From: a candidate division WS6 bacterium GW2011_GWF2_39_15
GTDB taxonomy: Bacteria; Patescibacteriota; Dojkabacteria; SC72
Assembly (NCBI GenBank): GCA_000993565.1
Contig: LBWK01000002.1
Coordinates: 160,620 to 224,619 of the forward strand
Direction: 5' to 3'
Length of the DNA: 64,000 nucleotides
Numbering within the stretch: position 1 is the first letter of the stretch; every line of letters starts with the position of its first letter. Made by a program: the position numbers and the translations under genes. Shown here in pieces: positions 3,682 through 51,825 of the stretch. A model generated the notes under the pieces. The model was given only the letters and a program-made list of their open reading frames with translations, had not been told where the DNA came from and searched no databases.

Positions 3682-4008
3682 GCACAAGTATCCTATGCAA
3701 CTGCTGCAGGGGTAAAATATCCCTGTAGAGGAAAGTCCGGACTTCATGTCGGTCACGAACATATTTCGTGATAGGCGCCGATGAAAGTCGGGAGGGAGTG
3801 ATCTCTCGGAGAAAAGGGCAACAGAAAATATACCGCCCCACTAACTTATAGTTAGAGGAGTAAGGGTGAAAAGGCAGTGTAAGAGACTACCAGTATATGT
3901 AGTAATGCATATAGCTTTGTAACCCCCGTTTGAAGCAAGGTGATATTAACACACCGCATAGATAGATAGTTGCATATAACAGAATTCGGCTTATGGGATG
4001 CTTGTGCA
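3682..4008 (+). ncRNA. rnpB: RNase P RNA (bacterial type A-like)
   Basis: Non-coding gap containing the universally conserved RNase P RNA motifs: GGAAAGUCCGGAC near 3730, AGGGUGAAAAGGCAGUGUAAGAGACUACCAG near 3862, and ACAGAAUUCGGCUUAU near 3979. The 5' GCACAAG (3683-3689) is complementary to the 3' CUUGUGC (4001-4007), giving the P1 helix. Confidence 0.85.
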
Positions 4009-4070
4009 AATATTGTAAGATATCTTTTGGGATTGAAAAGTAAAAGGTTTAAAGGGCAATTCCCGTGATA

Positions 4071-4436
4071 CTATCCTTTTATCTCACCACTCATTGCTTT
4101 AACTTCAGGATTGGTGGAGTGAAGGCATGAGAGTATGTATTCACTGGCCGTCTCTGGATTCATATCTGCACCGAGTGCACAATAGATGTTCTTGCCTTCA
4201 CTGGTAATAGACCTTCTATCGTCAGAAGGAGTGTATACAAGGACTCGCCTATAGAACGTCTCTGGTAAACTACGAACCGTTTCGTCTCGGCTTAGCATAA
4301 GCTCTATAACAGTATCTTCAGACTTTATTTTCCAATCTTGTCCTATGTAGGTTATTTCCTCTTTGGAGTTATTAAGAAGTTGATGACCAATTGTTTCATT
4401 CAAAGAGTGGTTTCCGTTAAATCTTAAGAGTAGCAT
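4071..4436 (-). CDS. hypothetical protein (121 aa)
   Basis: Uninterrupted 121-aa ORF in an AT-rich genome where random ORFs are short. No motif recognised. Confidence 0.4.
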   Translation of the reverse strand: MLLLRFNGNHSLNETIGHQLLNNSKEEITYIGQDWKIKSEDTVIELMLSRDETVRSLPETFYRRVLVYTPSDDRRSITSEGKNIYCALGADMNPETASEYILSCLHSTNPEVKAMSGEIKG

Positions 4437-4550
4437 GGTGTTAGTATTTAAATATGAGTTATACGTATATTATACTACAGGATAATGTGGATATAAATAC
4501 CGTAGGGTATTTTTAATATGATTATCAGTTTCTCAGAAGGTTAAACCGGC

Positions 4551-5483
4551 TTATCTTCCGACTAAATACTGACCCACATTCATAAGATTTTTGCCTTCAG
4601 GTTGTAATTCCAGTATTTCTATCTGTTTATACTTAGTACCTATTACTAATCTCTTTCTGTCCTCCAACCGTTCTCCAGCTTTAAGTTCATTAAACACATC
4701 TAATACTCTAACCTTGAATATTTTCACTCTCTGCTCATCTAAAATTGTCCATGCAACAGGCCAGGGTATAAATGCACGAACCATATGATCAATATCTTCC
4801 GCTGTATGAGTTTTAAAATCAACCTGTGCATTCTCTTTTGCTATGTCAGCCTTGTAGCAATACGTTGCTAAAGTATCATCCTGCTCAACCTCTTTTATTT
4901 TTCCCTTTGTCCATTTATCAAGAATGTCCGGAAGAATCTGTGCACTTATAGCAACTAACCTTTCTCTAAGTGATTGATTTGTATCATCATCCTTTATCTG
5001 CTCCTTAAAGATAGATAGTATAGGACCTGCATCCATTTTATCTATCATCTTAGTTACAGTTATACCGGTCTCCGTCTCTCCTTTCAGAATTGCCATTTGA
5101 ATTGGGACTGCTCCTCTATACTTCGGAAGAATTGAAAAATGGATGTTTATAGCCCCGAACTTTGGATACTCAAGAAAAAATTCTGGAATAATTTCGCCAA
5201 AGGCAATGCATACAACGAGCTCTGGTTTAAATAGTTCAATAGCGTCTTTGTATTTTTCCTCATTTGCTTCTGTAATGAATACAGGAATATTATTATCCAG
5301 CCCGTATTTCTTAACTTCGGTGGGCGTTAATATTTGTTTTCTCCCAACAGGTTTATCCCCTTGAGTTATTAATCCTACAATTTCAAACCTATTGTTCTTG
5401 TTTAGAGTTTTAAGTACGTCAAGTGATTCCCAGTTTGAACCTATAAAGACAGTTTTTATTCTTTCCATGGGATATTCTATCAT
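4551..5483 (-). CDS. fmt: methionyl-tRNA formyltransferase
   Basis: 310 aa. The formyltransferase N-domain (VFIGSNWESLDVLKTL...) and the HFSILPKYRGAVPIQMAILKGETETGITV motif match the Fmt/PurN fold, followed by the C-terminal Fmt domain. Confidence 0.88.
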   Translation of the reverse strand: MIEYPMERIKTVFIGSNWESLDVLKTLNKNNRFEIVGLITQGDKPVGRKQILTPTEVKKYGLDNNIPVFITEANEEKYKDAIELFKPELVVCIAFGEIIPEFFLEYPKFGAINIHFSILPKYRGAVPIQMAILKGETETGITVTKMIDKMDAGPILSIFKEQIKDDDTNQSLRERLVAISAQILPDILDKWTKGKIKEVEQDDTLATYCYKADIAKENAQVDFKTHTAEDIDHMVRAFIPWPVAWTILDEQRVKIFKVRVLDVFNELKAGERLEDRKRLVIGTKYKQIEILELQPEGKNLMNVGQYLVGR

Positions 5484-6172
5484 TAAAAGCCTGATGTAGT
5501 GTATTCATTTTCTGTGAATACCAGTTCTTTTGTATCAACTATATCAAAGATCTCTTTGACCTCAGGAACTGGCTTTTTAAGATAATCCCATACTTTATCC
5601 TCTTGTACCCATGAATATCTACCCTCAGGGGTAGGGACAAGATCACCCTGTGGATTCAAAAATCTGCAGGCAAAGAATATTTTATCCTCAACCAACTCTT
5701 TACTCTCATTGTATATTTTGTAATGTCTAATACTAAATAGTTCCGGTTCCCCAGTGAGTCCTGTCTCTTCTTTAAGTTCCCTTTTAGCTGCTTCAAGGAT
5801 ATTTTCCCCGCGTTTAACTTTTCCTGTAGGAAAACCCTGATAGCTATAGAAAGGGGATTTCAGCCTTGTATATAAAAGAAACTCTCTTTGTGAACCTAAG
5901 TTTCTAATACATACCATTAAAGCTGATATTTTCGCCTGTACATTAACTTTCTCATCTCCAAGATCCATGCGGTTTGCCATCTCTTTACCTAGATCGGTTA
6001 AGTAGTATAGCGATTCTTGCTTCTTTACATACCCACTTTTGATTAACTGGTCTAAATGAAAGGTAAACTTGCTGCCTTCCATGTTAAGGGTTTTGATATG
6101 TGAATATTTTAGGCCGTTAGAGTATAGAAGTTTTTGTAGAATTGAGAGCTGTTCAGGATGGAAATCTTTCAT
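5483..6172 (-). CDS. Nudix hydrolase with N-terminal winged-helix-like domain
   Basis: The Nudix box is GKVKRGENILEAAKRELKEETGL (GX5EX7REUXEEXGU). About 65 aa of helix-turn-helix-like sequence precede it. The start overlaps the fmt stop by 1 nt. Confidence 0.8.
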   Translation of the reverse strand: MKDFHPEQLSILQKLLYSNGLKYSHIKTLNMEGSKFTFHLDQLIKSGYVKKQESLYYLTDLGKEMANRMDLGDEKVNVQAKISALMVCIRNLGSQREFLLYTRLKSPFYSYQGFPTGKVKRGENILEAAKRELKEETGLTGEPELFSIRHYKIYNESKELVEDKIFFACRFLNPQGDLVPTPEGRYSWVQEDKVWDYLKKPVPEVKEIFDIVDTKELVFTENEYTTSGF

Positions 6173-6888
6173 CTTTTGATAAATTTCATGTTTAATCTAT
6201 ATGGCTTGTGCTGAAATTCCAAGTATTGAGGGTATTTTATCACGAAAAAGTCCGGTACACCCGTTTCTATTACCTGTTCAAGGACAAATCCATGTTTGGT
6301 AAAGGTGTTAGTATATGTTTGTATTGTCCTGTTTAAAAATGTCAGCTCCAATTCTTTCTCTTTGGCTATATTCCCTTTCACTCCTACCTCGCTTAAATAC
6401 CCTTTGTATCCCTGGCTTTTAATTGTGCCCTTCTGTTGGTCTACAATCCATTTAAGCGGGTGAGTTACCGAAATTACTAGCGCCCCGTTATCTGTCATTA
6501 TTGCTGAAACCTCTTTTGCTATATTGTCTAAATCATTTATGTACATAAGAAGCAGTTTGCAAGTTATTAAATTGAATTTATTCTTAAATCTTGGGAAAGG
6601 TTGTTCGAGGTCAGAGTGTATAAAATTGGTTTTTGTACATATGTTTTTTGCGGCAGAAATCATTTTCATGGAGTAGTCGATTGCGTATATGTGATTAGAG
6701 ATCACTTCGAGTCTTCGGGTAAAGCGGCCGTCTCCGCTTCCTAGATCCAATGTATAATCATTGTTTTCGTCACACAAACAGAGGAGAGAAGGCGTATTAA
6801 CAAGGTTTTCATAGGCAAAGTCAGCATTGTGATCCTCTTTTGCGTTCTTAATATACTTTGGTTGTATTCTATCCCAGATGTTTGTCAT
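6169..6888 (-). CDS. class I SAM-dependent methyltransferase
   Basis: Motif I is LDLGSGDGRFT and there is an acidic post-I residue in AIDYS. Overlaps the downstream Nudix gene by 4 nt, consistent with an operon. Confidence 0.75.
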   Translation of the reverse strand: MTNIWDRIQPKYIKNAKEDHNADFAYENLVNTPSLLCLCDENNDYTLDLGSGDGRFTRRLEVISNHIYAIDYSMKMISAAKNICTKTNFIHSDLEQPFPRFKNKFNLITCKLLLMYINDLDNIAKEVSAIMTDNGALVISVTHPLKWIVDQQKGTIKSQGYKGYLSEVGVKGNIAKEKELELTFLNRTIQTYTNTFTKHGFVLEQVIETGVPDFFVIKYPQYLEFQHKPYRLNMKFIKR

Positions 6889-7045
6889 GGCTATTGTTTC
6901 TGATTATCTGGGCAGTATCTATGTGATTATAGATTTGATTAAGGATATATTCTAGTAAAGTGGGCTTTACCAAATTGGACTTTACTAAACCGTACTTAAC
7001 TATATAATTTGTAGTAACTGCCGATATTTTATGATCAGATCTTAG

Positions 7046-7987
7046 ATGGATAGAAGAGATCGGCTGGAGTTCCTCGAAACAACATTAAAAAATTATAGGG
7101 AGCTTGATATAGGTAATGACATTGTTTTTGAGGAAGCGGTCTATCTTGCCAAGCGATGTGATAATCCTTTCTGTATAAACCGTTTTGGCCTTGCAATCCC
7201 GGAACCTGATATTGAAAGTCGAGCTAATTTTCTTGCACTTCGGATTACCCAGCTGGATGAATTAATGGCTCTGGAAAGTAAGGATGATTTTGCTTTGGAT
7301 TTGGGGGCAACTATCCTTTTGGTAATTAGGGAGATGTATAGCCTGGATTCTGTTTTAAGTTTCAGGACCGCAGTATGGTCAAAATATCTGAGTAATGAAA
7401 CCAGATATTCTTTCGTTGTACAAAGGGTTCGTATGGCGGGATTTTTTACAGATGAAGAAATGTGGAATGCTGCTATGAGAGAGAGCAAGCACATTATTGA
7501 GAGCTCATATAGGAAGGAAAGTCTTGAATTAGAAGAATATCTCGAACTTATGCAGGGCAATAAGTTAACTTCTCCATTTGGTGCAGATAGTTTGCGGTTA
7601 TTCCAAATTGCTTCGGAGTATTGGATGCTTTCATTGGGTAAACCAACTCCTTTTACAAGAGGTGATTTATATAATCTCCTCATAAGCGAGGTTAGTGAAC
7701 TTCTTGAGGCGGCCTCAAATATTAAGAAAGGTTCTCCGGATAATCGAGAAGCACGGATGAAGGAATATTCTTTTGAACTTGCAGATGTTTTCAATTATCT
7801 AATGCAAATGCTCACTGTAATGGGATATGACTTGTCGGCTACAATTCGCAAGGCGTCGGGTAAAAGGTACAGGGAAACTTTAGGAATAGGAAGAGAACTT
7901 GCATTAGGAAGAAAGATACTTTGGAATAGAAGGTTTAAGTGGTGGAGGGAGAAACGGTATGAGATTTTATTAAAGTCTTTAAAATAA
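7046..7987 (+). CDS. MazG-like nucleoside triphosphate pyrophosphohydrolase domain protein (C-terminal MazG-like, N-terminal uncharacterised, possibly a second degenerate MazG repeat)
   Basis: The C-terminal segment LISEVSELLEAASNIKKG...EYSFELADVFNYLMQMLTVMGYDL follows the MazG/NTP-PPase all-alpha pattern (E-x-x-E-L/E ... E-L-x-D-V). Confidence 0.55.
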   Translation: MDRRDRLEFLETTLKNYRELDIGNDIVFEEAVYLAKRCDNPFCINRFGLAIPEPDIESRANFLALRITQLDELMALESKDDFALDLGATILLVIREMYSLDSVLSFRTAVWSKYLSNETRYSFVVQRVRMAGFFTDEEMWNAAMRESKHIIESSYRKESLELEEYLELMQGNKLTSPFGADSLRLFQIASEYWMLSLGKPTPFTRGDLYNLLISEVSELLEAASNIKKGSPDNREARMKEYSFELADVFNYLMQMLTVMGYDLSATIRKASGKRYRETLGIGRELALGRKILWNRRFKWWREKRYEILLKSLK

Positions 7988-8014
7988 TCTTGTATTAGTG
8001 ATATAATACAAGGC

Positions 8015-8905
8015 ATGATAAATACGAGCAATATGTTTACTACAACTGCATCTGAAGTAAGAGTTGACGATGCTCAGATAAGAGGGGATTTAGACGAACT
8101 GATGCTATTAAGGGATAGTGTTGATCTTCTGCCTCATAATCTTTTTTTGGGCATAGAAGTAATACTTTACGAACCTGGGTCAAGTAAGATAATAGTCATA
8201 TCACCTATCTCCAGAATTGAGATTGATGGAGTTTGTAGACGGATAGAATATCCCGATTGGGAGGGAAATGTATATGAAATAACTCTCCAAGATTCTTCCG
8301 CAGTAAATCATGCAGTCGGGAAATTTGGTACAATTTGGCTTTTTGACCAATCTTTAATTGAGACTCGTGAACCGGAGGCTACTGCTTTGCCTTATCCATA
8401 TAGGAATAAAACATTTGGATTCCCAAACATTGCTGTGATTGCACCTCACTCAATGAGAACACGGGATAAAGATCACAGATATGATAAGGGAGGAATGATC
8501 GATCAACTTGTTAGAAATGCATCATTACTTGGAGAGGTATCTCGAAGAGGATGGCAGAATGGTAATTCTATGGACCCTGCTTTTAAAAATGATGCTTCAT
8601 ATGTGGAATTCCAGAATTTGATTAATGAGACGCTTGGACTTCTTATCCCAACAGAGTATCTTAAACAATTCTTTACTAGAAGTACTCTTGCTGAGGCATA
8701 TGCATTATTAGTTGTAAATGAATGTAAAGCAAAAAGAGGGCTTGAAGTTGAGTATGAAGATATGGAGGTAAATGTCGCGGATCCGATTGCTCTTGCTGCG
8801 ATAAGCCCAAGAGTTGGTGCCGCAATTATTGTTAAAGCCATTAAGAAGGAGTTGGGCTCTTTAGGCCATAAAAGTATGAAAGATTACCTATTACAGTGGG
8901 AATAG
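8015..8905 (+). CDS. hypothetical protein (296 aa)
   Basis: Long ORF with no recognised motif. Confidence 0.45.
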   Translation: MINTSNMFTTTASEVRVDDAQIRGDLDELMLLRDSVDLLPHNLFLGIEVILYEPGSSKIIVISPISRIEIDGVCRRIEYPDWEGNVYEITLQDSSAVNHAVGKFGTIWLFDQSLIETREPEATALPYPYRNKTFGFPNIAVIAPHSMRTRDKDHRYDKGGMIDQLVRNASLLGEVSRRGWQNGNSMDPAFKNDASYVEFQNLINETLGLLIPTEYLKQFFTRSTLAEAYALLVVNECKAKRGLEVEYEDMEVNVADPIALAAISPRVGAAIIVKAIKKELGSLGHKSMKDYLLQWE

Positions 8906-8920
8906 CATATAATCACTCTC

Positions 8921-9985
8921 ATGAAATTATCTCAGTTTGAGTACAATCTTCCGGAGGATCGTATTGCCAAATTCCCTCCAAAAGTGAGGGGCACAACTAA
9001 TCTGATGGTATTAAATAGGGACAGTCAGAGTATTGATCATAAGAAATATGCAGATATTCCCGATTATATTAAACCAGGAGATGTCCTTGTACTTAATAAT
9101 ACCAAGGTAGAAAGGGTTAGGGTGTTTCTCTTTAATCCCAGAAATGAGAAAAGAGTAGAAGCGATATTTCTAAACAAAGTATGTAGAGGAACAGATGAGG
9201 CTATCGAATACTGGGAGTGTATATTGGGCAGAGCAAAGCATGTAACGGAAGGTGATAAACTTAAATCATTTTTAAACGACGATAACTACATAGAAGTGGA
9301 GGGTAAAATATCTGACGGTATCTTCCTTGTTTCATCAAGGAAAGGAAAGATAGATTCTTTTTTTCAAAGTGAGGGGCACATACCACTGCCACCATATTTA
9401 CACAGAGAAGACAGTGAAGAAGATCGTGTCAGATATAATACCGTATTTGCCAAATATATAGGTTCTGCAGCTGCCCCTACAGCAGGTTTAAACGTTACAG
9501 AAGATCTTTTAAACAAACTTACGAATAAAGGGGTGAAAGTAGTTGAAGTTAAGCTTAATGTAGGGTGGGGAACATTTGCTCCAATAAGAACTGAGAATAT
9601 TGAAGATCACAAAATACATTCTGAAAGAATTGAAGTTACAAAACAAGCGGCAGATGAAATAAATGAGGTTATAAAAAGTGGTGGAGACATTTGGGTGTTA
9701 GGAACTACTGCCGCAAGGACGCTTGAGAGTGTTGCGTATAAGGATAAAGAGAGCGACAGATACTTTGTTAAGGAATATGAAGGTGATACAAATATTTATA
9801 TCTATCCGGGATATGAATGGAAAGTTGTTAATCATATGATTACGAATTTTCATGCTCCAAAGAGCAGCTTGGTAGTTATGATTAGTGCATTTGCGGGATA
9901 TGATTTTATTATGAAAGGGTATAATACTGCAATTGAGAAAAAGTATAACTTTCTAAGTTATGGAGATAGCATGCTAATAATATGA
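8921..9985 (+). CDS. queA: S-adenosylmethionine:tRNA ribosyltransferase-isomerase
   Basis: The N-terminus (MKLSQFEYNLPEDRIAKFP...GDVLVLNNTKV) and the C-terminal NFHAPKSSLVVMISAF motif match QueA. Translationally coupled to tgt. Confidence 0.88.
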   Translation: MKLSQFEYNLPEDRIAKFPPKVRGTTNLMVLNRDSQSIDHKKYADIPDYIKPGDVLVLNNTKVERVRVFLFNPRNEKRVEAIFLNKVCRGTDEAIEYWECILGRAKHVTEGDKLKSFLNDDNYIEVEGKISDGIFLVSSRKGKIDSFFQSEGHIPLPPYLHREDSEEDRVRYNTVFAKYIGSAAAPTAGLNVTEDLLNKLTNKGVKVVEVKLNVGWGTFAPIRTENIEDHKIHSERIEVTKQAADEINEVIKSGGDIWVLGTTAARTLESVAYKDKESDRYFVKEYEGDTNIYIYPGYEWKVVNHMITNFHAPKSSLVVMISAFAGYDFIMKGYNTAIEKKYNFLSYGDSMLII

Positions 9986-26470: not shown

Positions 26471-26812
26471 TTGTTGGAGCCTCTGTCTGAATTGTGTTCA
26501 TCTGCATTTAATCTCGATGGTTTACAATATAAAATATCTAACTTATCATCTACCTATATGTTAACCAAAAAAGATATTCAAATTCTAAGAGAGGTGTTTT
26601 TTGAGCCGATAGATAAACAGTTTCAAGAAATTCGGGATATATTAAGAGATCATAACCAAAGAATAATGAGCCTTCAGGATACCATTGTAGGAATTGATCA
26701 GTATTTAAACGGTGAACTCAAACTACTGCTTCGATCTATTGAAAACAATTTGAATAGACATGAACTTATGATTCAGAATCATGAGAAAAGACTGAAGGCT
26801 ATTAATGCTTAA
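26471..26812 (+). CDS. hypothetical coiled-coil protein (113 aa)
   Basis: ORF only. Confidence 0.4.
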   Translation: MLEPLSELCSSAFNLDGLQYKISNLSSTYMLTKKDIQILREVFFEPIDKQFQEIRDILRDHNQRIMSLQDTIVGIDQYLNGELKLLLRSIENNLNRHELMIQNHEKRLKAINA

Positions 26813-26835
26813 ATATTTTCATTCCTTCTTCTTAG

Positions 26836-26844
26836 TGCTATAAT
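26836..26844 (+). promoter_or_regulatory. extended -10 promoter (TGcTATAAT) for the lysS T-box leader
   Basis: TGnTATAAT consensus immediately upstream of the leader. Confidence 0.5.
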
Positions 26845-26845
26845 C

Positions 26846-27105
26846 CCGTTTAATACGCTGAAGAGGAAAGGTACTTCGAGAGTATTTAAGTGAACCCTGT
26901 TAAGTGTAAAAGGGTAATACTAAGAAGAGATCTCAAGACCTCTGAGTATCAGGAAGATCCCGCTAGTCTATAGAAATAGAGGGGGTAGAACCTGACGTGT
27001 CACTTACGATACAGAGTAGGAATGAGAGCAAAAGAAGGTGGTACCGTGTTATATACACCCTTCATAAGTATTCTTGACTGAATATTTATGAGGGGTGTTT
27101 TTGTA
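26846..27105 (+). promoter_or_regulatory. T-box riboswitch leader upstream of lysS
   Basis: The conserved T-box sequence AAGAAGGUGGUACCGUG (27034-27048) matches the AAnnnGGGUGGNACCGCG consensus. It overlaps a terminator hairpin ACACCCTTCATAA...TTATGAGGGGTG+TTTTT at 27055-27102, an antiterminator/terminator arrangement. The upstream stem-I region has an AGAGA-type motif, and a possible Lys specifier lies in ...GUAAAAGGG... Confidence 0.7.
27055..27102 (+). terminator. T-box leader terminator hairpin with T-run
   Basis: 12-nt inverted repeat followed by TTTTT, about 27 nt upstream of the lysS start. Confidence 0.65.
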
Positions 27106-27128
27106 TTTAACATATTATATAAATAACT

Positions 27129-29144
27129 ATGGATGCATCACAAAGAAGTGACCTGATTGGGCAGAGAAAAGTCAGACTGGAGAAAATCGAAAAGTTGAAA
27201 AACATGGGTATTGATCCATATCCTTCAACCAGCCTAAGGAACATCTCTAACCAGGAGATTATTGAAAACTACGGCAAGTATGAGAATAAAATGGTTACTG
27301 TTGCCGGTCGGCTTATGTCGTTTAGGGAACACGGTCAGCTTGTTTTTGGACATATTCAGGACCCTACAACTAGGATTCAGTTATACATAAAATCAGATAC
27401 TCTTCAGAAAACAGATGCCCGAAACCAAACATTAGGTTTTGAAGATCTTGAGCTTTTAGACGTTGGAGATATTGTTGAAGCAACGGGAATTGTAACGAAG
27501 ACTCAGAGAGGAGAGATTTCTATACTTCCGAGTACAGTAAGGCTTTTGACCAAAGCAATCCGACCCCTCCCTGACAAATGGGCGGGATTACAGGATAAAG
27601 AGGCTAAGTTCAGGCAAAGATACCTGGATCTAATAATGGATCCAACCAAGAAAGATAAGTTTGTTTCAGCCGCAAAAATCCTCTTTGCTATTAGATCCTT
27701 CTTGAACGATAGAGGGTTTCTGGAGATTAAGGTGCCGGTACTCCAACCTTTATACGGCGGTACTAACGCAAGACCGTTCAGCACGTATATGAACGCTTTA
27801 GGTACAGACTTCTACCTTGCCATTGCCCATGAGCTGTATCTTAAAAGGCTCATAACAGCAGGATTTGAGAATGTATATAACATGACAGGGTACTTTCGAA
27901 ATGAAGGTATAGACCGTACTCATAACCCTGAGTTTCAAATGCTTGAGACTATGACTGCGTATAAAAACTATGAGTATAACATGGAGCTTCTTGAAAGCCT
28001 GTATAAACATGTCGCCAAGAATGTAATGAACAAAAATGTATATAAAGTAGCGGGACAGGAAATAGATCTAATGGGCAAATGGAATAAGATCATGATGATC
28101 GATGCTATCAAGAAGTATGCTGGAGTTGATTTTGACAGAATAAAAACTGTTCAGGATGCCCACAAAACTCTTGATGAGCTGGGATACCAGGGAACAAAAC
28201 CAGATACAATTGGAGAGTGCATGAAAGAGGTCTTTGAGCTGAAAGTTGAGCACCAGCTTATACAGCCGACTATTGTTTACGGCCATCCAGTTGAGATATC
28301 TCCTCTTGCGAAGAGGATGACAACCGACCCTCGATTTGTAGAAAGATTTGAGGTGTTTATTGGCGGTGTTGAACAGGGAGATAACTGGAGTGAGCTTAAT
28401 AATCCTGTTGAGCTTTTTGAGAGGTTCAAAGAGCAGAGTCTCTCCAAAAAGATGAAGGAGAGTGATTCTGCACACCCTATGGACATAGAGTTTATCGAAA
28501 CTATGGAATACGGTATGCCTCCGACAACAGGCTTAGGACCAGGCATTGAAAGATTCCAGATGCTGTTTACAGAGTCAGAATATATAGACGATGTAATATT
28601 CTTCCCGTTAATGAAACCTGCTCCGGTTACAAGGCTTCAAAAAGAAATTTATGGTGAAGAGGCCTTAGAAGGGAATGAAAAACTTCTAGGAAAAGGGTCA
28701 GGGAAGAAGAAAGACATTGAACAGGATATGTCAAAAAAAATGGTTGTAGTGCTTAATAACTCGCTGGAAGGTTGGAAGATTACAAATACGGTGGGGCATC
28801 TATGCGCATATCTTGGAAACAACATAGAAAAGAATAGATTTGCAAGTGTTGACTCATTTGAGTTTGCTGACGGTAACACGATACCATCCAATTCACAGTA
28901 TCCGGTAGTTGCACTTGGTGCTACAGACTCTCAGCTCCATAACCTTTATGAGAGGGTAAAAGAGAAGGGAGATGTTATCCACTTAGTCTATACCAAGGAG
29001 ATGCTGGATTTTAAAGAGGATAAAGATCTTTCCAAAGCCATTTCCAAAATGAGTATGAAAGATGGTGAGATATATGGAATAGGTATATTTGCTGATGTTG
29101 ATACCATTAAGGAGCTCACTGGAAAATTCAGCCTGTATAAATAG
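27129..29144 (+). CDS. lysS: lysine--tRNA ligase (class II) fused to a C-terminal PTH2/DUF2000-like domain
   Basis: N-terminal OB anticodon-binding domain. Class II motifs: FLEIKVPVLQ, FRNEGIDRTHNPEFQMLE and GLGPGIERFQML. About 170 extra C-terminal residues end in ...GEIYGIGIFADVDTIKELTGKFSLYK, which parallels the PTH2 C-terminus (...GP...IDKVTGHLKLY). Confidence 0.85.
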   Translation: MDASQRSDLIGQRKVRLEKIEKLKNMGIDPYPSTSLRNISNQEIIENYGKYENKMVTVAGRLMSFREHGQLVFGHIQDPTTRIQLYIKSDTLQKTDARNQTLGFEDLELLDVGDIVEATGIVTKTQRGEISILPSTVRLLTKAIRPLPDKWAGLQDKEAKFRQRYLDLIMDPTKKDKFVSAAKILFAIRSFLNDRGFLEIKVPVLQPLYGGTNARPFSTYMNALGTDFYLAIAHELYLKRLITAGFENVYNMTGYFRNEGIDRTHNPEFQMLETMTAYKNYEYNMELLESLYKHVAKNVMNKNVYKVAGQEIDLMGKWNKIMMIDAIKKYAGVDFDRIKTVQDAHKTLDELGYQGTKPDTIGECMKEVFELKVEHQLIQPTIVYGHPVEISPLAKRMTTDPRFVERFEVFIGGVEQGDNWSELNNPVELFERFKEQSLSKKMKESDSAHPMDIEFIETMEYGMPPTTGLGPGIERFQMLFTESEYIDDVIFFPLMKPAPVTRLQKEIYGEEALEGNEKLLGKGSGKKKDIEQDMSKKMVVVLNNSLEGWKITNTVGHLCAYLGNNIEKNRFASVDSFEFADGNTIPSNSQYPVVALGATDSQLHNLYERVKEKGDVIHLVYTKEMLDFKEDKDLSKAISKMSMKDGEIYGIGIFADVDTIKELTGKFSLYK

Positions 29145-29244: not shown

Positions 29245-32200
29245 GTGAAAAGATCTGTCCAAATCAATTTAAGAAGCTTCTTTACAAGGAAAATCACCAT
29301 ATTTAAGTGGCAGTTCAATCTTTTTGCATTCGTATGTATTTCGATAGGTGTTGTTTTAGGCCTTTATGCGGGAGCAGTAAATATTTTCAAATCATATGCT
29401 GTTAACGATACTTTTCAGACTTGGACATTCAACATAGCCAATGCAAATAACTATACTTATGATAGTGAATTTATAGCCGTTAATAATAGCGGTGCACATT
29501 TGGGAGTGAACAAATTAACAAATGGGAGTTTGGATACTGATTTAGCAGGATGGAGTGATGCCCAAAGCTATATTATTAAGGATGAGTTCACAGATACAAG
29601 AGCTGGTGGTAGTGTTAACGGAACAAGTGCGACACCAACAGGAGGGCTGAGAAGTGTAACAGATACAAATAGTAAATTGAGTATAGGTGGAGGGTCTTTA
29701 ATATTTACAACCGGTGGGGTTGCTGCCGGTGACCCAGGATTACGATATAGTTCTATGAGTAGAACACCGGGAAGAATTATCTATGGGAAAATTACGCTTG
29801 ATAATGTTGGTAATAGCGGTTATACAACTTTTGGTTTTGATGATAACACAGTGACAAGGATTGAAGATGGTGCCCTGTTCTATGACGGACGGGTATATCA
29901 CTTTGGAGCTGGGGCAAATGTCGGGGAAGATGTGTCAAAAGGGGTGGAGTATGATACCGCAGTTATTCAACGAAGCTCCGGGTCATACCTGTTTCTTAAA
30001 GGTGGGATATATACAAGCTGGACTTTGATAAGTATCAGTAACACAGGATCATTTGCAACGACATATCCTGGTTTCGGGGTTTATACTAGCACGATCAGTG
30101 CATTGGCTGCGGGTTTGATCCGCGTCCCTACTACAACATGGATACCAACGCCTTTAGCGTACGATACTTTTACCAGATCTGATGGGAGTGCAGGAAGTAC
30201 AGAAGCAGCTGGCCCGGATAGTCAAACCACTGAAAGGCTTTCATGGAGTACCGGTACTATTTCGAGTAATGGCATGAAAATAACTCCTTCTGTGGGTAGT
30301 GAACTTGTAACAGATGGTGGAATGGAAAACTGGACAAGTGCAACCAATCTAACAAGCTGGACTGAATACTTAGCTGGAACCTCAACTCTAAATCAAGAAT
30401 CATCGATCACTCACAGTGGAAGTTACTCCTCGCGATCAGACATTGATGCTTCTGGTAGTTATGCACAGGCAGTGCAATCCCTTTCCGGGAGTATTGGTGA
30501 TTGGGTAGCTTCATCTGTATGGGGAAGAGCTTCAGCTAGTGGTAAGACATTTTACTCGATGTCTACGGGTTCACGAATTCTTACTGAAGCAGGGTCTGAA
30601 AATCCTGGAACTACATGGACTCGATATTATAACAGTTGGAGGGTGCTGTCCTCTGGAGATCTTAGTATTTGGCCGGTATACAGATCTAGTGCCTCTTCAT
30701 CTTCTTTATACCGTGATGATATCTCGGTTAAAAAACTCAGTCTTCCTTCTCTCTTCTCGGTATTATCTACCTCAGATTCAGATGTTCTTGCAGAGGTTAA
30801 TGTCACTATGGAACCTGGAAATCCTGCTGGACTAGTCCTAAATCTTGATTCAACAAGCAATCCACAGAATTTTGTAATAGCTTATCACGATGGTGGTAAT
30901 GTGAAACTGGAAAAATCTGTTGGTGGAGTATATACCTCTGTTCAAAGTACAGCTGTTACATATGTTGCTGGCGCTCCTTTGAAGGTAACAAAGACGGGTA
31001 CAAAGTATAAAATTTATTATAATAATGCTTTGGTAGGATCTGAACAGACAATTTCGGATGCAGGCATCATTAGTAATACAAATCACGGTGTATTTTCTAC
31101 ATATTCCGAAAACACATTTGATAATTTTGCCCTTTGGGCAAGAGGTTCCGGAGGTGAGTATAATGACATTCCTGCAGAGGATTTAACGGCGACATATGAG
31201 ACTACAACTAAGTATAGCGGAGCAGGTAGTGCAAAACTTATTACTTCCGGAAACAATGCTAACTTCCTTCAGAGTATTAATACCGGCGATACCAATGTTT
31301 ACTCTTTAGTTACCTACGCCTATACAGACGGTAGTGCTGTAACAAGTTCTGATCTTGTTCTGTATCACGACGGTTCAGTTGTACCAACTCAATTTACATC
31401 TGTAGGTGGAGGCTGGTACAGGTTAACAGGAACTATAACCGGTGCAGCATCGAGTAAAGATGTTGGAATCAGAGTTAAGGCAGGGAAAACTGTGTATGTT
31501 GATGAATTTCTTCTTTATAAACTCGGGGAAGTAACATTAACAAACTCCAAATTTGAAAGTGATGTTAGTGGATGGAGTGGAACACAATCATACCTGCTTC
31601 AAGATGAGTTTACAGATACAAGAGCAGCTGGGAGCGTTAATGGAACTAGTGCGACACCGACTGGAGGAGTCCGAACAGTTGCGGATACAAGTAGTCAGTT
31701 AAGTATTGGAGGAGGAAGAGTGCAAATCGGAGATGCACCGGCAAGTTACACAAATATTTCCTATCCCCAAATTACAAGGCAGTCTGGACGAGCATTAATA
31801 GGAAATCTTAAGAATAATTTTTCGTATAGTGCTCCAATGTTTGGTTTCGATGATACAGTTGGAGGGCAAATTGCTGATGGAGTCCGTTTTGCAAGCGGAG
31901 GAGGTTTTAGCATCTATGACGGTGCTCTGACTGCAGGTGTCGGAACATATGTAGCGGGAACTGATTATACGCTAGCGGTAATACAGAGAGCTGCAGGTAA
32001 CTATTATTTCATAAAGGGAGGGGCATACTCAAATTGGTCTCTTCTATACATGACTAACAATTCGACAGGAAACAGATATCCTAGTTTAAGTGCTCAAACC
32101 CCTATTACAAGTGTTTCCTCTGATTATATTAGAGTTCCCTCATTATCATGGCTTCCTACACCTCTTGCATATGATACCTTTACAAGAGCAGACGGAGTAA

Positions 32201-35200
32201 TAGGAAATTCTGAAACGACTGGACCTGATTCCCAAACTACACCTTCACTAGTATGGACAGGAGGAACAATATCGGGAAATAAAATTACTATTACGCCTGA
32301 AATAGGCTCAGAATTAGTTACAAATGGAAATATGGAAATAGGTGACCCTCCTAGCAGTTGGAGTAGTACGTCAACTTTTGATGGTGTGGCAGATGAAAGA
32401 ACAGGTGGTAGTGGTGCTCAATCAGTAGATATTACTGGAGTATCTGGTGGCGTCTTTCAGGACCTTTTATCCACAAATGGAACCTGGGTTTCAATATCAA
32501 ACTGGCAAAAAAATATTACTGGTGGGTTTCCAAAGGTTTTTGTCTATGGAGGTCCTGGTTATACAAACCCGATTTATGACAAATACGGAAGTAGCGATGG
32601 TTCTTGGCACAATTATATAGGCTCAGGGAGGGTTACTTCAACTGCACCAAGAGTTTATTTATATTTAACCACTACTGGGCATGAGTATCGTTATGATGAT
32701 ATCTCAGTCAAACCTTTAACCCTTTCATCCCTTTTCTCCACTGTCTCCACTTCGGATTCTGATGTTATGGCAGATGCTAATGTAACTCTAACTTCCGGTA
32801 CTCAAGCTGGACTAGTTTTAAATCTTGATTCAACGAGTAATCCTCAGAACTTTGTAATTGCATATCACGACGGAACAAATGTAAAACTCGAAAAATCAGT
32901 AGCAGGAGTATATACAACAGTACAGACAACTGCTGTAACATACTCAGCGGGTGCACAGCTCAGAGTTATTAAAGATGGTACTAAGTATCGTGTATATTAC
33001 AACAACACCCTTGTAGGAGCAGAACTTACAATCTCTGATGCGGGTATTATAAGTAATACAAAACACGGCCTTTTCTCAACATACTCTGGTAATACCTTTG
33101 ACAATTTCTCACTCTTTGCAAGGGGAACCGGTGGTGAATACACTGATATTCCTGCAGAAGATGTGACTGCTACATACAGTACTGTTCATAAATATACAGG
33201 TAATGGAAGTGCCTTGCTTTCAACAGGAGGTAATGACTCGAACTTTGTACAGAGTATAAACGTAGGTGATACATCTCAATACTCTCTGGTTGCATATGCA
33301 TATACTGATGGAAGTGCCGTAACGGCAAACGATTTGGAGCTATATTATAATGACTCAGTTCTTTCAACAACCTTTACGGATATGGGAGGTGGCTGGTACA
33401 AACTTAGTGGTGTGTTCACCGGTATTGCATCAAGCAAGGATCTTGGGGTGAGAGTAAAAGCAAGCAAAACAGTTTATGTCGATGATATATCACTATACCA
33501 GCAGTCTGCATACTCAATATTTAATACCGACGGATACTATAACCAGTTGGTCACATCATGGGATTCATTCTCTTCAGATGTAACCACCCCGGGAAGCAGC
33601 AGTATTAAATATCAAGTATGTACTAACGATGGAGACGTCTGTGAAAGCGGAGTGGGAGCAAACTGGAAATATTGGAACGGCAGTGTATGGTCTGCTGCCT
33701 CGAACCTTACAACACATACTAATACCGCAGCTCAACTTACCCAGTCAGTTATGCAGGAGCTGGACACGTTGACTCAGAAGATCTCAGTAAAAGTGATACT
33801 AAACCCTGATGGAATTAACTTCCCGAATATTGCAAATATGATTGTGGGTATGACTACAGATACAACTGACCCAGTCAATGCGACCCTATCCAGGTTTATG
33901 AAAACACCAACACTATCATGTGACTATACTGATAACTGCTGGACTGGGGTATCCACGCCTATTTTTGAGTGGGAAGGCGGAGATGATAATGAAAGCGGAT
34001 TGAAAGGATATTGTTTGTATTTTGGAACCGATGAAGCAGGAGACCCTGCTCATAACAAAGGGAAACTTGGAACATCCCCTGTTCCTGTTTCAGGAACATC
34101 ATGCCAATTCATTATCTCAGGTGAACAGCTGGATCTCTCGACAGCAGGATACCTTGGCACTGCTTTATCTAACGATGATACTTTCATAACATCAGCAAAT
34201 ACGTACTACCTCAATATTAAGAGTGTTGATAATGCAGGGAATGTCGTAAATGTAAGCGAAACAATTAGATTCCGATATGATGAAACTGCTCCTACGAATG
34301 TAAGTTATATATCTACACCTTCGGGTAACTTCTCTAATGTAGTTGATATGAGCTTCTCATGGCCGGTCTCCGGAGCAGGAATTTCACATGATGACGAATC
34401 TGATGTCTTAGGATGGCAGTATCAAATAAACTCTATGAGTGGAGAGTGGCAGGGTACTCAACATTCCGACCTTTATGATATTGATTATATTCCTTTAGGA
34501 GAATCGTCATATACATTAGCTGAAGTGAGGGACGGATCTTTTATAGTTTCAGGCGATAACATTATTTACTTCAGAACTGTAGATAATGTAGGTAATTTCT
34601 CCGGGACTTCGACTATAAGAACCGGAAATATATCCTATGGAGGCGAGGCACCTGATTTTGCTCCTACAGATATTGTCACGGTTACACCTACAACCAGCGA
34701 AACAAACAGCTATGCACTCTCGTGGCCGGCTGCGACGCCTTCCGTGGGTACAGAAGTGGCTCATTACTACTACATGATTAATACCCCGCCTCCTTCTACA
34801 CTTAATACGCTTCAGAGTAATACGGCAGCCTATCTGGATAACGGTACCTCATTAACGGTTTCTGCCAGAGCAATGTCAAATGTGAACAAGGGTTCAAACA
34901 CCGTTTATGTGGTTGCGGTTGATGATGCAGATGTGCCAAACTACTCTCCAAGCAACTACATAACGGGGACGTTTACTTTGGACTCTACAAATCCCGATAA
35001 TGTTGGAAATCTGGTGGTCTCAGACTCTTCAATTAAATCCCAATCCCAATGGAATGTTACCCTTACATGGACTGCTCCAGAGTATCAGGGGGCAGGTAAC
35101 CTATCATATCTTGTATACAGGTCGGAAGATGGAATTAGTTTTATTCAGGTAGGGTCAAGCTCAGGTTTTTCGTATGTAGATAGTGCTCCTGAATCAAGGC

Positions 35201-36528
35201 AGTATTTCTATAAAATTGTTACAAAGGACGGTGCTGATGCACTATCATCAGGTACAAATACCGTTACTATAATTCCGACAGGAAAATGGACTGCACCGGC
35301 AGACCTTGAGTCAGCTCCTTTTGTGAGTAGTATAACAACCAAGAAAGCACAGATAACCTGGAGTACATCTAGAGCCTCGGATTCAAAAATTGCATTTGGG
35401 ACAAAATCCGGACTGTATTTCGAAGAGGAACCGAGCAATTCAGATCAAGTAACGAGTCATTCAATTAATCTCTCAGGTCTCAACCCCAATACCACATACT
35501 TTTATGTTGCTAAGTGGACAGATGAGGATGGTAACACGGGGATCTCTGAAGAGAAATCGTTTAAGACGCAGGCCGCTCCGGTTATAAAAAATGTGTTGGC
35601 AAAAAATATAGGTTTAAGTTCTGCAATCATACAGTTTACCTCCAAGGGATCCAGCAAGGTGAAGATATATTATGGTGAAAGCTCAAACTTCGGAGGAGTC
35701 AAAGAAGTTCCGACGTCACCTATTGAGACTACATATACAGTTGAGTTAACTGGTCTTAAAGATGGCACCAAGTACTTCTATAAATTGAATGCTTTTGATG
35801 TTGAGACCAGTGAGTATGACGGGACTATTTTAGACTTCATCACCCTTCCTAAGCCGAGAATATCCGAGATAGTGCTCCAAGAGGTCTCCGGTACTTCACA
35901 GACAACAATCCTTGTTACATGGCAGACAAATACTGAGGTCTCCTCTATTATCACATACTATCCTGAGGGCAGGATTGATCAGGCAAGAGATGAGGTGATT
36001 GTTACCTTAAAGAAAGGGGAACATAAGATGATTATACGGGGATTACTTCCTCAAACGAGTTATTATCTTGTTGTTAAAGGTAGGGATAGGATCGGAAATG
36101 AAGCTGTCTCTGATTCGTATAAGTTTGCGACATCAACAGACAGTCGTGCACCGCAGATTTCCGGGATGCTGGTCGAAGGATCTACGATTCCCGCTGTATC
36201 GTCAACCGCTGAAGAGACAAAAGCTCAGCTTATCGTCTCATGGAATACGGATGAACCTGCAACATCACAAATTGAATATGGAGAAGGGACTGGTACATCG
36301 TACCCGCAGAAGACACAACTTGATAATAATCTGACTTTAAATCATATCGTAATTATTTCGGGTTTGAGTCCTTCAAAGGTATATCATTTAAGAGTCCTTT
36401 CAAAAGATAAGGCCGGTAATGAGGGTAAATCAATAGATACTGTCACTATTACGCCTAAATCAACAGATAATGCACTTAATTTGGTTATAACTAATTTACA
36501 GGAAATATTTGGTGTTCTTGGAAGGTAA
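29245..36528 (+). CDS. giant cell-surface protein (2427 aa): N-terminal anchor, two ~670-aa tandem repeat modules (lectin/LamG-like, inferred), C-terminal fibronectin-III-like domains
   Basis: Single uninterrupted ORF. N-terminal hydrophobic segment (LFAFVCISIGVVLGLYAGAV). Internal duplication visible at both protein and DNA level. Four FN3-like units near the C-terminus (for example KAQITWSTSRASDSKIAFGT...TTYFYVAKWTDEDGNTG). Confidence 0.8.
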   Translation: MKRSVQINLRSFFTRKITIFKWQFNLFAFVCISIGVVLGLYAGAVNIFKSYAVNDTFQTWTFNIANANNYTYDSEFIAVNNSGAHLGVNKLTNGSLDTDLAGWSDAQSYIIKDEFTDTRAGGSVNGTSATPTGGLRSVTDTNSKLSIGGGSLIFTTGGVAAGDPGLRYSSMSRTPGRIIYGKITLDNVGNSGYTTFGFDDNTVTRIEDGALFYDGRVYHFGAGANVGEDVSKGVEYDTAVIQRSSGSYLFLKGGIYTSWTLISISNTGSFATTYPGFGVYTSTISALAAGLIRVPTTTWIPTPLAYDTFTRSDGSAGSTEAAGPDSQTTERLSWSTGTISSNGMKITPSVGSELVTDGGMENWTSATNLTSWTEYLAGTSTLNQESSITHSGSYSSRSDIDASGSYAQAVQSLSGSIGDWVASSVWGRASASGKTFYSMSTGSRILTEAGSENPGTTWTRYYNSWRVLSSGDLSIWPVYRSSASSSSLYRDDISVKKLSLPSLFSVLSTSDSDVLAEVNVTMEPGNPAGLVLNLDSTSNPQNFVIAYHDGGNVKLEKSVGGVYTSVQSTAVTYVAGAPLKVTKTGTKYKIYYNNALVGSEQTISDAGIISNTNHGVFSTYSENTFDNFALWARGSGGEYNDIPAEDLTATYETTTKYSGAGSAKLITSGNNANFLQSINTGDTNVYSLVTYAYTDGSAVTSSDLVLYHDGSVVPTQFTSVGGGWYRLTGTITGAASSKDVGIRVKAGKTVYVDEFLLYKLGEVTLTNSKFESDVSGWSGTQSYLLQDEFTDTRAAGSVNGTSATPTGGVRTVADTSSQLSIGGGRVQIGDAPASYTNISYPQITRQSGRALIGNLKNNFSYSAPMFGFDDTVGGQIADGVRFASGGGFSIYDGALTAGVGTYVAGTDYTLAVIQRAAGNYYFIKGGAYSNWSLLYMTNNSTGNRYPSLSAQTPITSVSSDYIRVPSLSWLPTPLAYDTFTRADGVIGNSETTGPDSQTTPSLVWTGGTISGNKITITPEIGSELVTNGNMEIGDPPSSWSSTSTFDGVADERTGGSGAQSVDITGVSGGVFQDLLSTNGTWVSISNWQKNITGGFPKVFVYGGPGYTNPIYDKYGSSDGSWHNYIGSGRVTSTAPRVYLYLTTTGHEYRYDDISVKPLTLSSLFSTVSTSDSDVMADANVTLTSGTQAGLVLNLDSTSNPQNFVIAYHDGTNVKLEKSVAGVYTTVQTTAVTYSAGAQLRVIKDGTKYRVYYNNTLVGAELTISDAGIISNTKHGLFSTYSGNTFDNFSLFARGTGGEYTDIPAEDVTATYSTVHKYTGNGSALLSTGGNDSNFVQSINVGDTSQYSLVAYAYTDGSAVTANDLELYYNDSVLSTTFTDMGGGWYKLSGVFTGIASSKDLGVRVKASKTVYVDDISLYQQSAYSIFNTDGYYNQLVTSWDSFSSDVTTPGSSSIKYQVCTNDGDVCESGVGANWKYWNGSVWSAASNLTTHTNTAAQLTQSVMQELDTLTQKISVKVILNPDGINFPNIANMIVGMTTDTTDPVNATLSRFMKTPTLSCDYTDNCWTGVSTPIFEWEGGDDNESGLKGYCLYFGTDEAGDPAHNKGKLGTSPVPVSGTSCQFIISGEQLDLSTAGYLGTALSNDDTFITSANTYYLNIKSVDNAGNVVNVSETIRFRYDETAPTNVSYISTPSGNFSNVVDMSFSWPVSGAGISHDDESDVLGWQYQINSMSGEWQGTQHSDLYDIDYIPLGESSYTLAEVRDGSFIVSGDNIIYFRTVDNVGNFSGTSTIRTGNISYGGEAPDFAPTDIVTVTPTTSETNSYALSWPAATPSVGTEVAHYYYMINTPPPSTLNTLQSNTAAYLDNGTSLTVSARAMSNVNKGSNTVYVVAVDDADVPNYSPSNYITGTFTLDSTNPDNVGNLVVSDSSIKSQSQWNVTLTWTAPEYQGAGNLSYLVYRSEDGISFIQVGSSSGFSYVDSAPESRQYFYKIVTKDGADALSSGTNTVTIIPTGKWTAPADLESAPFVSSITTKKAQITWSTSRASDSKIAFGTKSGLYFEEEPSNSDQVTSHSINLSGLNPNTTYFYVAKWTDEDGNTGISEEKSFKTQAAPVIKNVLAKNIGLSSAIIQFTSKGSSKVKIYYGESSNFGGVKEVPTSPIETTYTVELTGLKDGTKYFYKLNAFDVETSEYDGTILDFITLPKPRISEIVLQEVSGTSQTTILVTWQTNTEVSSIITYYPEGRIDQARDEVIVTLKKGEHKMIIRGLLPQTSYYLVVKGRDRIGNEAVSDSYKFATSTDSRAPQISGMLVEGSTIPAVSSTAEETKAQLIVSWNTDEPATSQIEYGEGTGTSYPQKTQLDNNLTLNHIVIISGLSPSKVYHLRVLSKDKAGNEGKSIDTVTITPKSTDNALNLVITNLQEIFGVLGR
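29515..33510 (+). repeat. tandem duplication of a ~2.0-kb coding module within the giant gene
   Basis: Unit 1 (about 29515-31530) and unit 2 (about 31531-33510) share long conserved blocks, for example DEFTDTRAGGSVNGTSATPTGG and PQNFVIAYHDG.NVKLEKSV.GVYT...TAVTY.AGA...GTKY..YYNN.LVG...ISDAGIISNT.HG.FSTYS.NTFDNF...ARG.GGEY.DIPAED.TATY. Confidence 0.85.
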
Positions 36529-51751: not shown

Positions 51752-51825
51752 CGGGGTGTAGTTCAGATGGCTAGAACGCTTGCATGGGGTGCAAGAGGCC
51801 GCTCGTTCAAGTCGAGTCACCCCGA
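51752..51825 (+). tRNA. tRNA-Pro (anticodon GGG), CCA not encoded
   Basis: Manual fold. Acceptor CGGGGTG/CACCCCG; D-stem GTTC/GAAC; anticodon stem CTTGC/GCAAG with loop ATGGGGT; T-arm GCTCG-TTCAAGT-CGAGT. A TATAAT box lies at 51733-51738 upstream. Confidence 0.75.

Follow-up and report, generated by a model that had tools for sequence, protein, structure and literature searches.

A probable tRNA-Lys-specific T-box riboswitch in the lysS leader of a Candidatus Dojkabacteria genome

The lysS gene located in a 64,000-nt stretch of the candidate division WS6 bacterium GW2011_GWF2_39_15 genome (contig LBWK01000002.1; the whole stretch is hereafter called the window) is preceded by a leader of about 250 nt. 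This leader is very probably a transcriptional T-box riboswitch of the full stem I/stem II/IIA-B type, specific for tRNA-Lys and controlling the lysS gene in Candidatus Dojkabacteria, a group of the Candidate Phyla Radiation (CPR). The leader displayed the sequence and structure elements of such a switch, the mutual exclusivity of its antiterminator and terminator, conservation and covariation among orthologous leaders, and a match between codon and gene, with an AAG specifier in the leader and a lysyl-tRNA synthetase (LysRS) encoded downstream. A preliminary description made from the sequence alone had identified the leader as a T-box, and this identification was supported by a full-length alignment to the Rfam T-box model RF00230, by the presence of every working part and by compensatory changes in orthologous loci. 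All coordinates given below without a locus name are positions in the window, and the following features were recognised on its + strand:

26816..26821, + strand: -35-like hexamer TTTTCA (promoter scan, 10/12 matches, with TG before the -10)
26836..26844, + strand: extended -10 sequence TGcTATAAT (TGCTATAAT; promoter scan, spacer to TTTTCA of 17 nt)
26855..26947, + strand: stem I (RF00230 alignment with cmscan, pair counts in 8 leaders)
26888..26910, + strand: AG bulge AAGUGAA (26888-26894), 5' strand CCCU of the distal helix (26895-26898) and distal loop GUUAAGUGUAAA (26899-26910), from the alignment
26935..26938, + strand: specifier AAG (Lys, 26935-26937) with purine A (26938), directly 5' of CCUCU (cmscan alignment)
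26949..26995, + strand: stem II with the internal-loop motif GAAGA...GUAGAA (GAAGA/AGUAGAA; alignment, covariation)
26996..27017, + strand: stem IIA hairpin CGUGUCACUUACG (26996-27008) and candidate IIB partner GAGU (27014-27017) of the loop ACUU (27002-27005)
27034..27063, + strand: antiterminator with helix A1, 7-nt bulge and helix A2 (pairing in 11 leaders)
27055..27103, + strand: intrinsic terminator made up of a 19-bp hairpin (27055-27098) and the U-tract TTTTT (27099-27103; terminator scan, covariation)
27129..29144, + strand: class II lysyl-tRNA synthetase with C-terminal DUF2000, 671 aa (Pfam tRNA_anti-codon, tRNA-synt_2, DUF2000)

The gathering score of RF00230 is 93 bits, and the scan of the window at the Rfam gathering threshold returned RNase P RNA and one tRNA only, with no T-box. 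A permissive scan aligned the model from end to end (positions 1-219) to 26849-27065 with a score of 55.3 bits (E = 2.2e-11 locally and 2.5e-9 over the whole 64-kb window), and this was the sole T-box match in the window.

Orthologous loci were collected by exact-protein look-ups and profile scans of genome and metagenome collections, giving 174 loci; the scan of genome contigs with a single LysRS protein gave no matches and a profile of 16 LysRS sequences was needed. RF00230 matched the leaders at the orthologous lysS loci L002 (83.9 bits), L004 (69.8 bits), L003 (59.9 bits), L001 (47.4 bits), L005 (43.8 bits) and L173 (40.5 bits), all six scoring below 93 bits, and the leaders of L010, L015, L016, L023 and the truncated L013 were found by reading the sequences. 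Ten distinct Dojkabacteria lysS leaders besides that of the window shared the architecture, and the leaders compared came with LysRS proteins 57-80% identical to that of the window. A clade-specific covariance model built from the 3' domains of the leaders recovered 11 full-length leaders (window, L001-L005, L010, L013, L015, L016 and L023) with 68-91 bits, the diverged L173 leader (L011 refetched with a larger flank) with 31 bits and the 5'-truncated L098 copy with 27 bits. Across the 797 kb of LysRS loci, the remaining plus-strand match of this model was a single insignificant one (E 0.55) common to L096 and L097, and its minus-strand matches were palindromic terminators. The whole-leader MAFFT alignment put L010 out of register in stem I; therefore, sub-regions were aligned separately. 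The shuffle figures given below are the numbers of shuffles, out of 500, which reached the covariation score.

The T-box motif AAGAAGGTGGTACCGTG was found at 27032-27048, where the preliminary description had placed it, and it takes part in the antiterminator, in which helix A1 (GAAGG 27034-27038 with CCUUC 27059-27063) and helix A2 (GUGU 27046-27049 with ACAC 27055-27058) flank the 7-nt bulge UGGUACC (27039-27045). This bulge has the UGGNACC form and contains the predicted UGGU compatible with an ACCA end. The 27034-27063 segment folded alone adopted exactly the antiterminator shape with -5.8 kcal/mol, in comparison with -27.5 kcal/mol for the terminator. The terminator, a strong hairpin with its U-run as described previously, ends 26 nt before the ATG codon, counted from the end of the U-tract, and the terminator scan revealed 3 terminator-like sites in 1 kb vs. 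0.3 expected from shuffles. The sequence ACACCCUUC (27055-27063) constitutes both the 3' strand of the antiterminator and the 5' arm of the terminator, pairing either with the T-box motif or with 27090-27098, and this common strand makes the two structures mutually exclusive. The preliminary description had proposed the exclusive arrangement correctly and had located the overlap in the T-box motif itself; the overlapping piece is ACACCCUUC instead. The T-box sequence GGUGGUACC was invariant in the 11 leaders of alignment A4 and read GGUGGUAAC in the diverged L173 leader, and the U-tract was kept in 11/11 leaders of this alignment, L005 included. For the terminator, 98.6% of cells were paired in the 11 leaders and 9 of 19 pairs were compensatory (shuffles 0/500, slid controls 37-59%). 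For the antiterminator, 99% of cells were paired in the same number of leaders with compensatory changes in 2 of 9 pairs (shuffles 2/500, slid controls 35-62%). Both of these pairs belonged to helix A2 (2/4), and the five A1 pairs never varied, as expected for pairs being part of the T-box sequence.

A foldable stem I carrying a lysine specifier and a GA/K-turn motif had also been anticipated, and each of them was present. The base of stem I consists of a two-pair stem (26855-26856 with 26946-26947), the UGA (26859-26861) and GA (26944-26945; GAG 26944-26946) elements of the GA/K-turn motif and the closing helix AGAGG/CCUCU (26862-26866 with 26939-26943), which is flanked by the motif and was 92.5% paired; the sequence of this region would give the stem I base a K-turn geometry. 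The 26855/26947 pair covaried, being GC in five leaders and AU in three. The predicted specifier, AAA or AAG followed by a purine, was found as AAG-A directly 5' of the closing helix. AAG was invariant at the specifier position in 11/11 leaders with a readable stem I (window included), always followed by A or G and preceded by C or U. Just above the specifier, 26868-26872 and 26930-26934 form a putative Watson-Crick helix, which would make the specifier loop very asymmetric: its 5' strand would have 1-2 nt, as opposed to (N)AAGR on the 3' strand. In the distal part of stem I, AGUGA of the AG bulge and AGUG..AA of the distal loop were invariant in 8 leaders. The AG bulge and the distal loop GUUAAGUGUAAA align to AGAGA and GGUUGGUGAAA (GGUG.aA) of RF00230, respectively, and the distal helix between them (26895-26898 with 26911-26914) was 100% paired with one compensatory pair. 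The 26888-26910 segment is presumed from its sequence to be the platform for the tRNA elbow (interdigitated T-loop fold). For the entire stem I, pairs were counted in 8 leaders, L010 and L005 being left out; 87.5% of cells were paired and 9 of 19 pairs were compensatory (shuffles 0/500, slid controls 34-53%). These counts are lowered (L004 and L015 in the helix of columns 16-20/78-82) because the register of the middle helices differs by one column from row to row. RNAalifold applied to stem I gave the closing and distal helices only, plus a spurious short helix.

The AAGA and TAGA columns of stem II were invariant, and the lower helix (26949-26953 with 26991-26995) was paired in 97.8% of cells in 9 leaders, with all 5 of 5 pairs compensatory; taken together with the IIA stem it gave shuffles of 0/500 and slid controls of 14-32%. 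The CG/CG stem of the IIA hairpin was invariant in 9 leaders. A candidate IIB pairing of 4-5 bp was present at the same relative place in every leader (ACUU/GAGU, GCUAA/UUAGC, AUGCU/AGUAU, ACUUC/GAAGU and AUGC/GCAU), individually non-significant in comparison with shuffles, and the sequences are compatible with a IIA/B pseudoknot.

The leader lies in the 26813-27128 region, which separates a 113-aa open reading frame (ORF; 26471-26812) from the 671-aa gene (27129-29144). No ORF of at least 60 aa crosses the leader on either strand, the longest open stretch being 42 codons, and the G+C content of the window is 38.6%. The extended -10 promoter reported in the preliminary description was confirmed as TGCTATAAT with TTTTCA 17 nt upstream, and the orthologous leaders read had a TGnTATAAT-like or TATAAT -10 sequence from a few to ~15 nt 5' of the first conserved leader residue. 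The protein encoded downstream contains the OB anticodon-binding domain, the tRNA-synt_2 core and a C-terminal DUF2000 domain according to Pfam, and its closest homologues (60-80% identity) are source-named lysine-tRNA ligases of Candidatus Dojkabacteria. The C-terminal fusion had been called hydrolase-like, a label which found no support: the domain is Pfam DUF2000, whose only solved relative in the PDB search was the hypothetical protein 2GAX (E 0.016), giving no functional lead. The DUF2000 part comprises the C-terminal 143 aa of LysRS (28713-29144 of the window). The fusion is common to dozens of Dojkabacteria LysRS proteins (P0001-P0046), some of which add B3_4 and HD domains (P0037, 1107 aa).

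Several observations weigh against a tRNA-Lys-specific T-box at this locus. The curated Rfam threshold was not reached, 55.3 bits being scored against 93. The specifier S-turn, usually the loop E formed by AGUA/GAA, was not evident: at its place the window reads GGUA/AGA, and columns 16-20 and 78-82 covary like the strands of a Watson-Crick helix (both partners change in 4 of 5 pairs), which suggests that the S-turn has been replaced by a helix. Stem III, which is included in the solved T-box discriminator domains, is absent in the window, where the 24 nt from the candidate IIB strand to the T-box sequence (GAAUGAGAGCAAAA...) form no hairpin and none is possible within 27018-27033; it was also absent in L003, L005 and L016, and a hairpin was present in L001, L002, L004, L010 and L023. 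The candidate IIA/B pseudoknot has just 4 bp in the window and was non-significant upon shuffling. Finally, the 64-kb window contains no tRNA-Lys gene, only tRNA-Glu(CUC) and tRNA-Pro(GGG), so that the evidence for matching anticodon and discriminator bases comes from a relative and from general knowledge. The preliminary description had named a covariance-model score below threshold as refuting a T-box, and by this measure the result formally counts against one. The below-threshold criterion was judged too strict, because the full-length match had an E-value of 2.5e-9, the orthologous leaders also scored below 93 bits and compensatory changes were observed. The two departures, in stem III and the S-turn, are probably behind the sub-threshold Rfam scores, and neither of them removes parts contacting the tRNA anticodon or 3' end.

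From these elements we infer tRNA binding, discrimination between charged and uncharged tRNA, and the regulatory output as follows. Transcription would start a few bases downstream of TGcTATAAT. The anticodon of tRNA-Lys would pair with AAG at 26935-26937, the CUU isoacceptor fitting best and UUU pairing by wobble, and the tRNA elbow would stack on the AG-bulge/distal-loop platform (26888-26910). The free 3' ACCA of uncharged tRNA would then pair with UGGU (27039-27042) in the 7-nt bulge, stabilising the weak antiterminator (27034-27063), and RNA polymerase would read into lysS. With charged tRNA, this ACCA-UGGU pairing would not take place and the stronger terminator (27055-27098 with U5) would form, leading to a stop 26 nt before the start codon.

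The partner of the leader was considered with the help of L022, a related CPR locus without a T-box. It contains a tRNA-Lys(CUU) gene (1283-1361, 48 bits with the Rfam tRNA model) ending with ...GGGCCC-A-CCA, i.e., with discriminator A73 and an encoded CCA. A tRNA-Lys(CUU) of the L022 type would be compatible with the leader, pairing perfectly with AAG and with UGGU. The L022 gene lies in the gap upstream of lysS, and its anticodon loop reads UUCUUUA, with U and not a purine at position 37. The AAA and AAG codons occur 142 vs. 87 times in five window genes, and the Lys T-boxes in TBDB have AAA in 87% and AAG in 13% of cases (PMC7778990). The invariant AAG of the clade is thus a minority choice, which suggests monitoring of the CUU isoacceptor.

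The distribution of the element and the variants of the locus were also analysed. A looser motif search of the 700 nt preceding the other CPR LysRS genes (L019-L022, L025-L027, L048 and L093-L106) detected no T-box core, in agreement with the clade model; therefore, the element is confined to part of the class. The T-box-less other CPR LysRS showed 59-67% identity. The GGTGGCACC sequence noticed upstream of high-G+C LysRS genes (L121, L128 and L145) was rejected as a candidate, being located in CCGAAG-type repeats without T-box architecture. In the T-box-less L007 (2810-2884), L008, L020, L021 and L093, a minus-strand tRNA-Gly(GCC) occupies the gap upstream of lysS.

The lysS T-box of L005, a Logan SRR28740823 contig whose LysRS shows 65% identity, carries an ultrashort stem I (2811-2841) composed of only the K-turn and GAG/CUC closing a 7-nt loop CUAAGGA, in which AAG is central like in an anticodon. 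With the TGGTATAAT promoter directly upstream, the L005 element has no space for a long stem I. This leader keeps a strong terminator and U-tract. In L173, the T-box at 3805-4075 (40.5 bits with the Rfam model) with its terminator (element to 4122) has a Lys(AAG) specifier and is followed by a cluster (4158-9049) of a 268-aa gene, a homocitrate-synthase-like gene, a 230-aa EgtC-like amidohydrolase gene and lysS-DUF2000. The homocitrate-synthase-like gene matched TIGR02146 with 213 bits, below the cutoff, and there is a 33-nt gap before lysS-DUF2000. The L173 switch probably controls a lysine-related operon including lysS. In L174 (GCA_020429465.1; 5209-11983), lysS closes a gene cluster of the LysW-carrier lysine/arginine pathway, which contains lysW-like, LysX, LysY, LysZ, LysJ-type and EgtC-like (GATase_4) genes, and no T-box was found at this cluster. 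L173 and L174 share an EgtC-like amidohydrolase gene as the immediate upstream neighbour of lysS, and one may speculate that its product might replace LysK in freeing lysine from the carrier.

Other explanations of the leader were weighed against a functional, tRNA-Lys-specific transcriptional switch. The low Rfam score, the absent stem III, the specifier loop without an evident S-turn and the loss of most of stem I in L005 could all be found in a decayed or co-opted T-box remnant, in which tRNA sensing has been lost and attenuation at the terminator is constitutive or controlled by a protein. However, the most conserved parts of the leaders are exactly the tRNA contacts (AAG with its purine, AGUGA, AGUG..AA of the distal loop and GGUGGUACC), whereas the helices change by compensatory substitution. 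The freezing of the tRNA-contact elements combined with the compensated drift of the helices points to selection on tRNA-binding function and not to decay; a remnant is therefore considered very unlikely. The signal that is read could be disputed as well. Since every leader has A or G behind AAG, shifting the reading by one base always gives an Arg triplet (AGA or AGG), and a T-box using this +1 frame would sense tRNA-Arg instead of tRNA-Lys, or both. TBDB mentions other specifier frames for at least one of the systems studied (PMC7778990), and the Bacillus cereus lysK T-box responds also to tRNA-Asn (PMC2916919). On the other hand, the codon in the +1 frame would be followed by a C or U paired in the closing helix and not by a conserved unpaired purine, and the regulated gene of every locus is LysRS. 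All genes behind the switch have a connection to lysine, to which the homocitrate-synthase-like gene of the L173 operon also points. A conserved purine after the codon is the canonical rule and explains the A/G pattern without arginine, which leaves the +1 reading even less probable than decay.

A translational T-box, with a sequestrator masking the ribosome-binding site, was also considered: Actinobacteria are known to have such switches with a reduced stem I (PMC7778990, PMC11297988), and the stem I of L005 is reduced in this way. In the window, however, the alternative helix is a 19-bp G+C-based hairpin with U5 that ends 26 nt before ATG and excludes the start region, and the U-tract persists in all 11 leaders of alignment A4, L005 being no exception. 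The translational mode is thus extremely improbable, the most remote of the alternatives, and the leader is best read as a transcriptional T-box sensing tRNA-Lys.

With regard to the known systems, the window leader is a class I transcriptional T-box by nearly all defining features, and its domain order is the same as in the class I leaders of Firmicutes aminoacyl-tRNA synthetase genes (e.g., Bacillus subtilis tyrS, RF00230), which have stem I, stem II, the IIA/B pseudoknot and the antiterminator/terminator. Common to both are, in stem I, the GA/K-turn motif, the AG bulge with the distal loop and a specifier loop ending 3' with the codon and a purine; further 3', they share the GAA/AGUA motif of stem II, the IIA hairpin, the T-box sequence with its UGGNACC bulge and an overlapping terminator with a U-tract. 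The leader differs from them in its score of 55 bits (below 93), the absence of stem III (window, L003, L005 and L016), the apparent helix at the S-turn place and the host, which is a CPR bacterium and not a Gram-positive one. In comparison with the translational ileS T-boxes of Actinobacteria (ultrashort stem I, class II in TBDB), stem I of the window leader is full-length and includes the distal platform. The cut-down stem I of L005 resembles these switches, but L005 keeps an intrinsic terminator and is therefore transcriptional, unlike the actinobacterial ones.

T-box control of LysRS was described in 4 species among 891 genomes, namely for lysK of B. cereus and B. thuringiensis, lysS2 of Clostridium beijerinckii and lysS of Symbiobacterium thermophilum, always beside a second LysRS (Foy et al. 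2010, PMC2916919), and few specifiers in TBDB are less common than Lys (PMC7778990). The rarity asserted in the preliminary description agrees with both sources. Like the known LysRS T-boxes, the window leader has a lysine specifier before a LysRS gene, and the LysRS of S. thermophilum and C. beijerinckii are also class II. The window specifier is AAG as opposed to AAA in most TBDB Lys T-boxes; the known LysRS leaders were compared by description only. The known LysRS T-boxes coexist with a second LysRS devoid of a T-box, whereas the lysS of the window is likely to stand alone. CPR genomes are small and as a rule encode each synthetase once; therefore, the window lysS may be the only LysRS of the cell. 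The full-text library searched contained no paper on a T-box in CPR, Patescibacteria or Dojkabacteria, which does not mean that none has been published. The leader is a switch of a known type with a rare specificity, in a lineage for which no earlier report was found, with some structural reduction and no new kind of mechanism.

The surroundings of the locus provided further observations. The 113-aa ORF (26471-26812), with a TTG start and no Pfam match, separates a LiaF-like gene from the lysS promoter; L001 and L004 are syntenic, and there the lysS leader directly follows the LiaF-like gene. A 2427-aa ORF with internally repeated segments (29245-36528) begins 100 nt past lysS, and in relatives a HAD hydrolase gene and ABC-2 transporter genes are found at this position instead. 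The tRNA-Pro(GGG) at 51752-51825 was called by ARAGORN and its sequence resembles a normal cloverleaf, and it was not listed by the Rfam tRNA model at the gathering threshold or at E <= 0.01. The bacterial RNase P RNA class A at 3685-4008 scored 175.8 bits, its peripheral elements being shorter than those of the model.

T-boxes are regarded as a hallmark of Gram-positive bacteria, with lysine among the rarest specificities. A conserved Lys T-box in a CPR class would mean that reduced, episymbiotic bacteria sense tRNA charging directly via RNA, and the whole group (40-84 bits vs. 93) is missed by scans at the Rfam gathering threshold. If the window lysS is the sole LysRS, it would be a counter-example to the rule of an unregulated LysRS backup (Foy et al. 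2010). The leaders of the clade make up a natural deletion series, with or without stem III, with a full-length or ultrashort stem I and with no evident S-turn, which bears on the modules needed for charge sensing. A further, tentative proposal, on balance rather doubtful, is that the Dojkabacteria T-boxes form a lineage-specific reduced subclass, partly devoid of stem III, having a helix for the S-turn, an invariant AAG reading the CUU isoacceptor and, in one case, an ultrashort stem I, and controlling the cell's only LysRS, in some instances as part of a lysine-biosynthesis and lysS operon. If this is true, T-box regulation would extend to the Candidate Phyla Radiation, and these leaders would provide natural minimal variants for judging which modules of the switch are dispensable.

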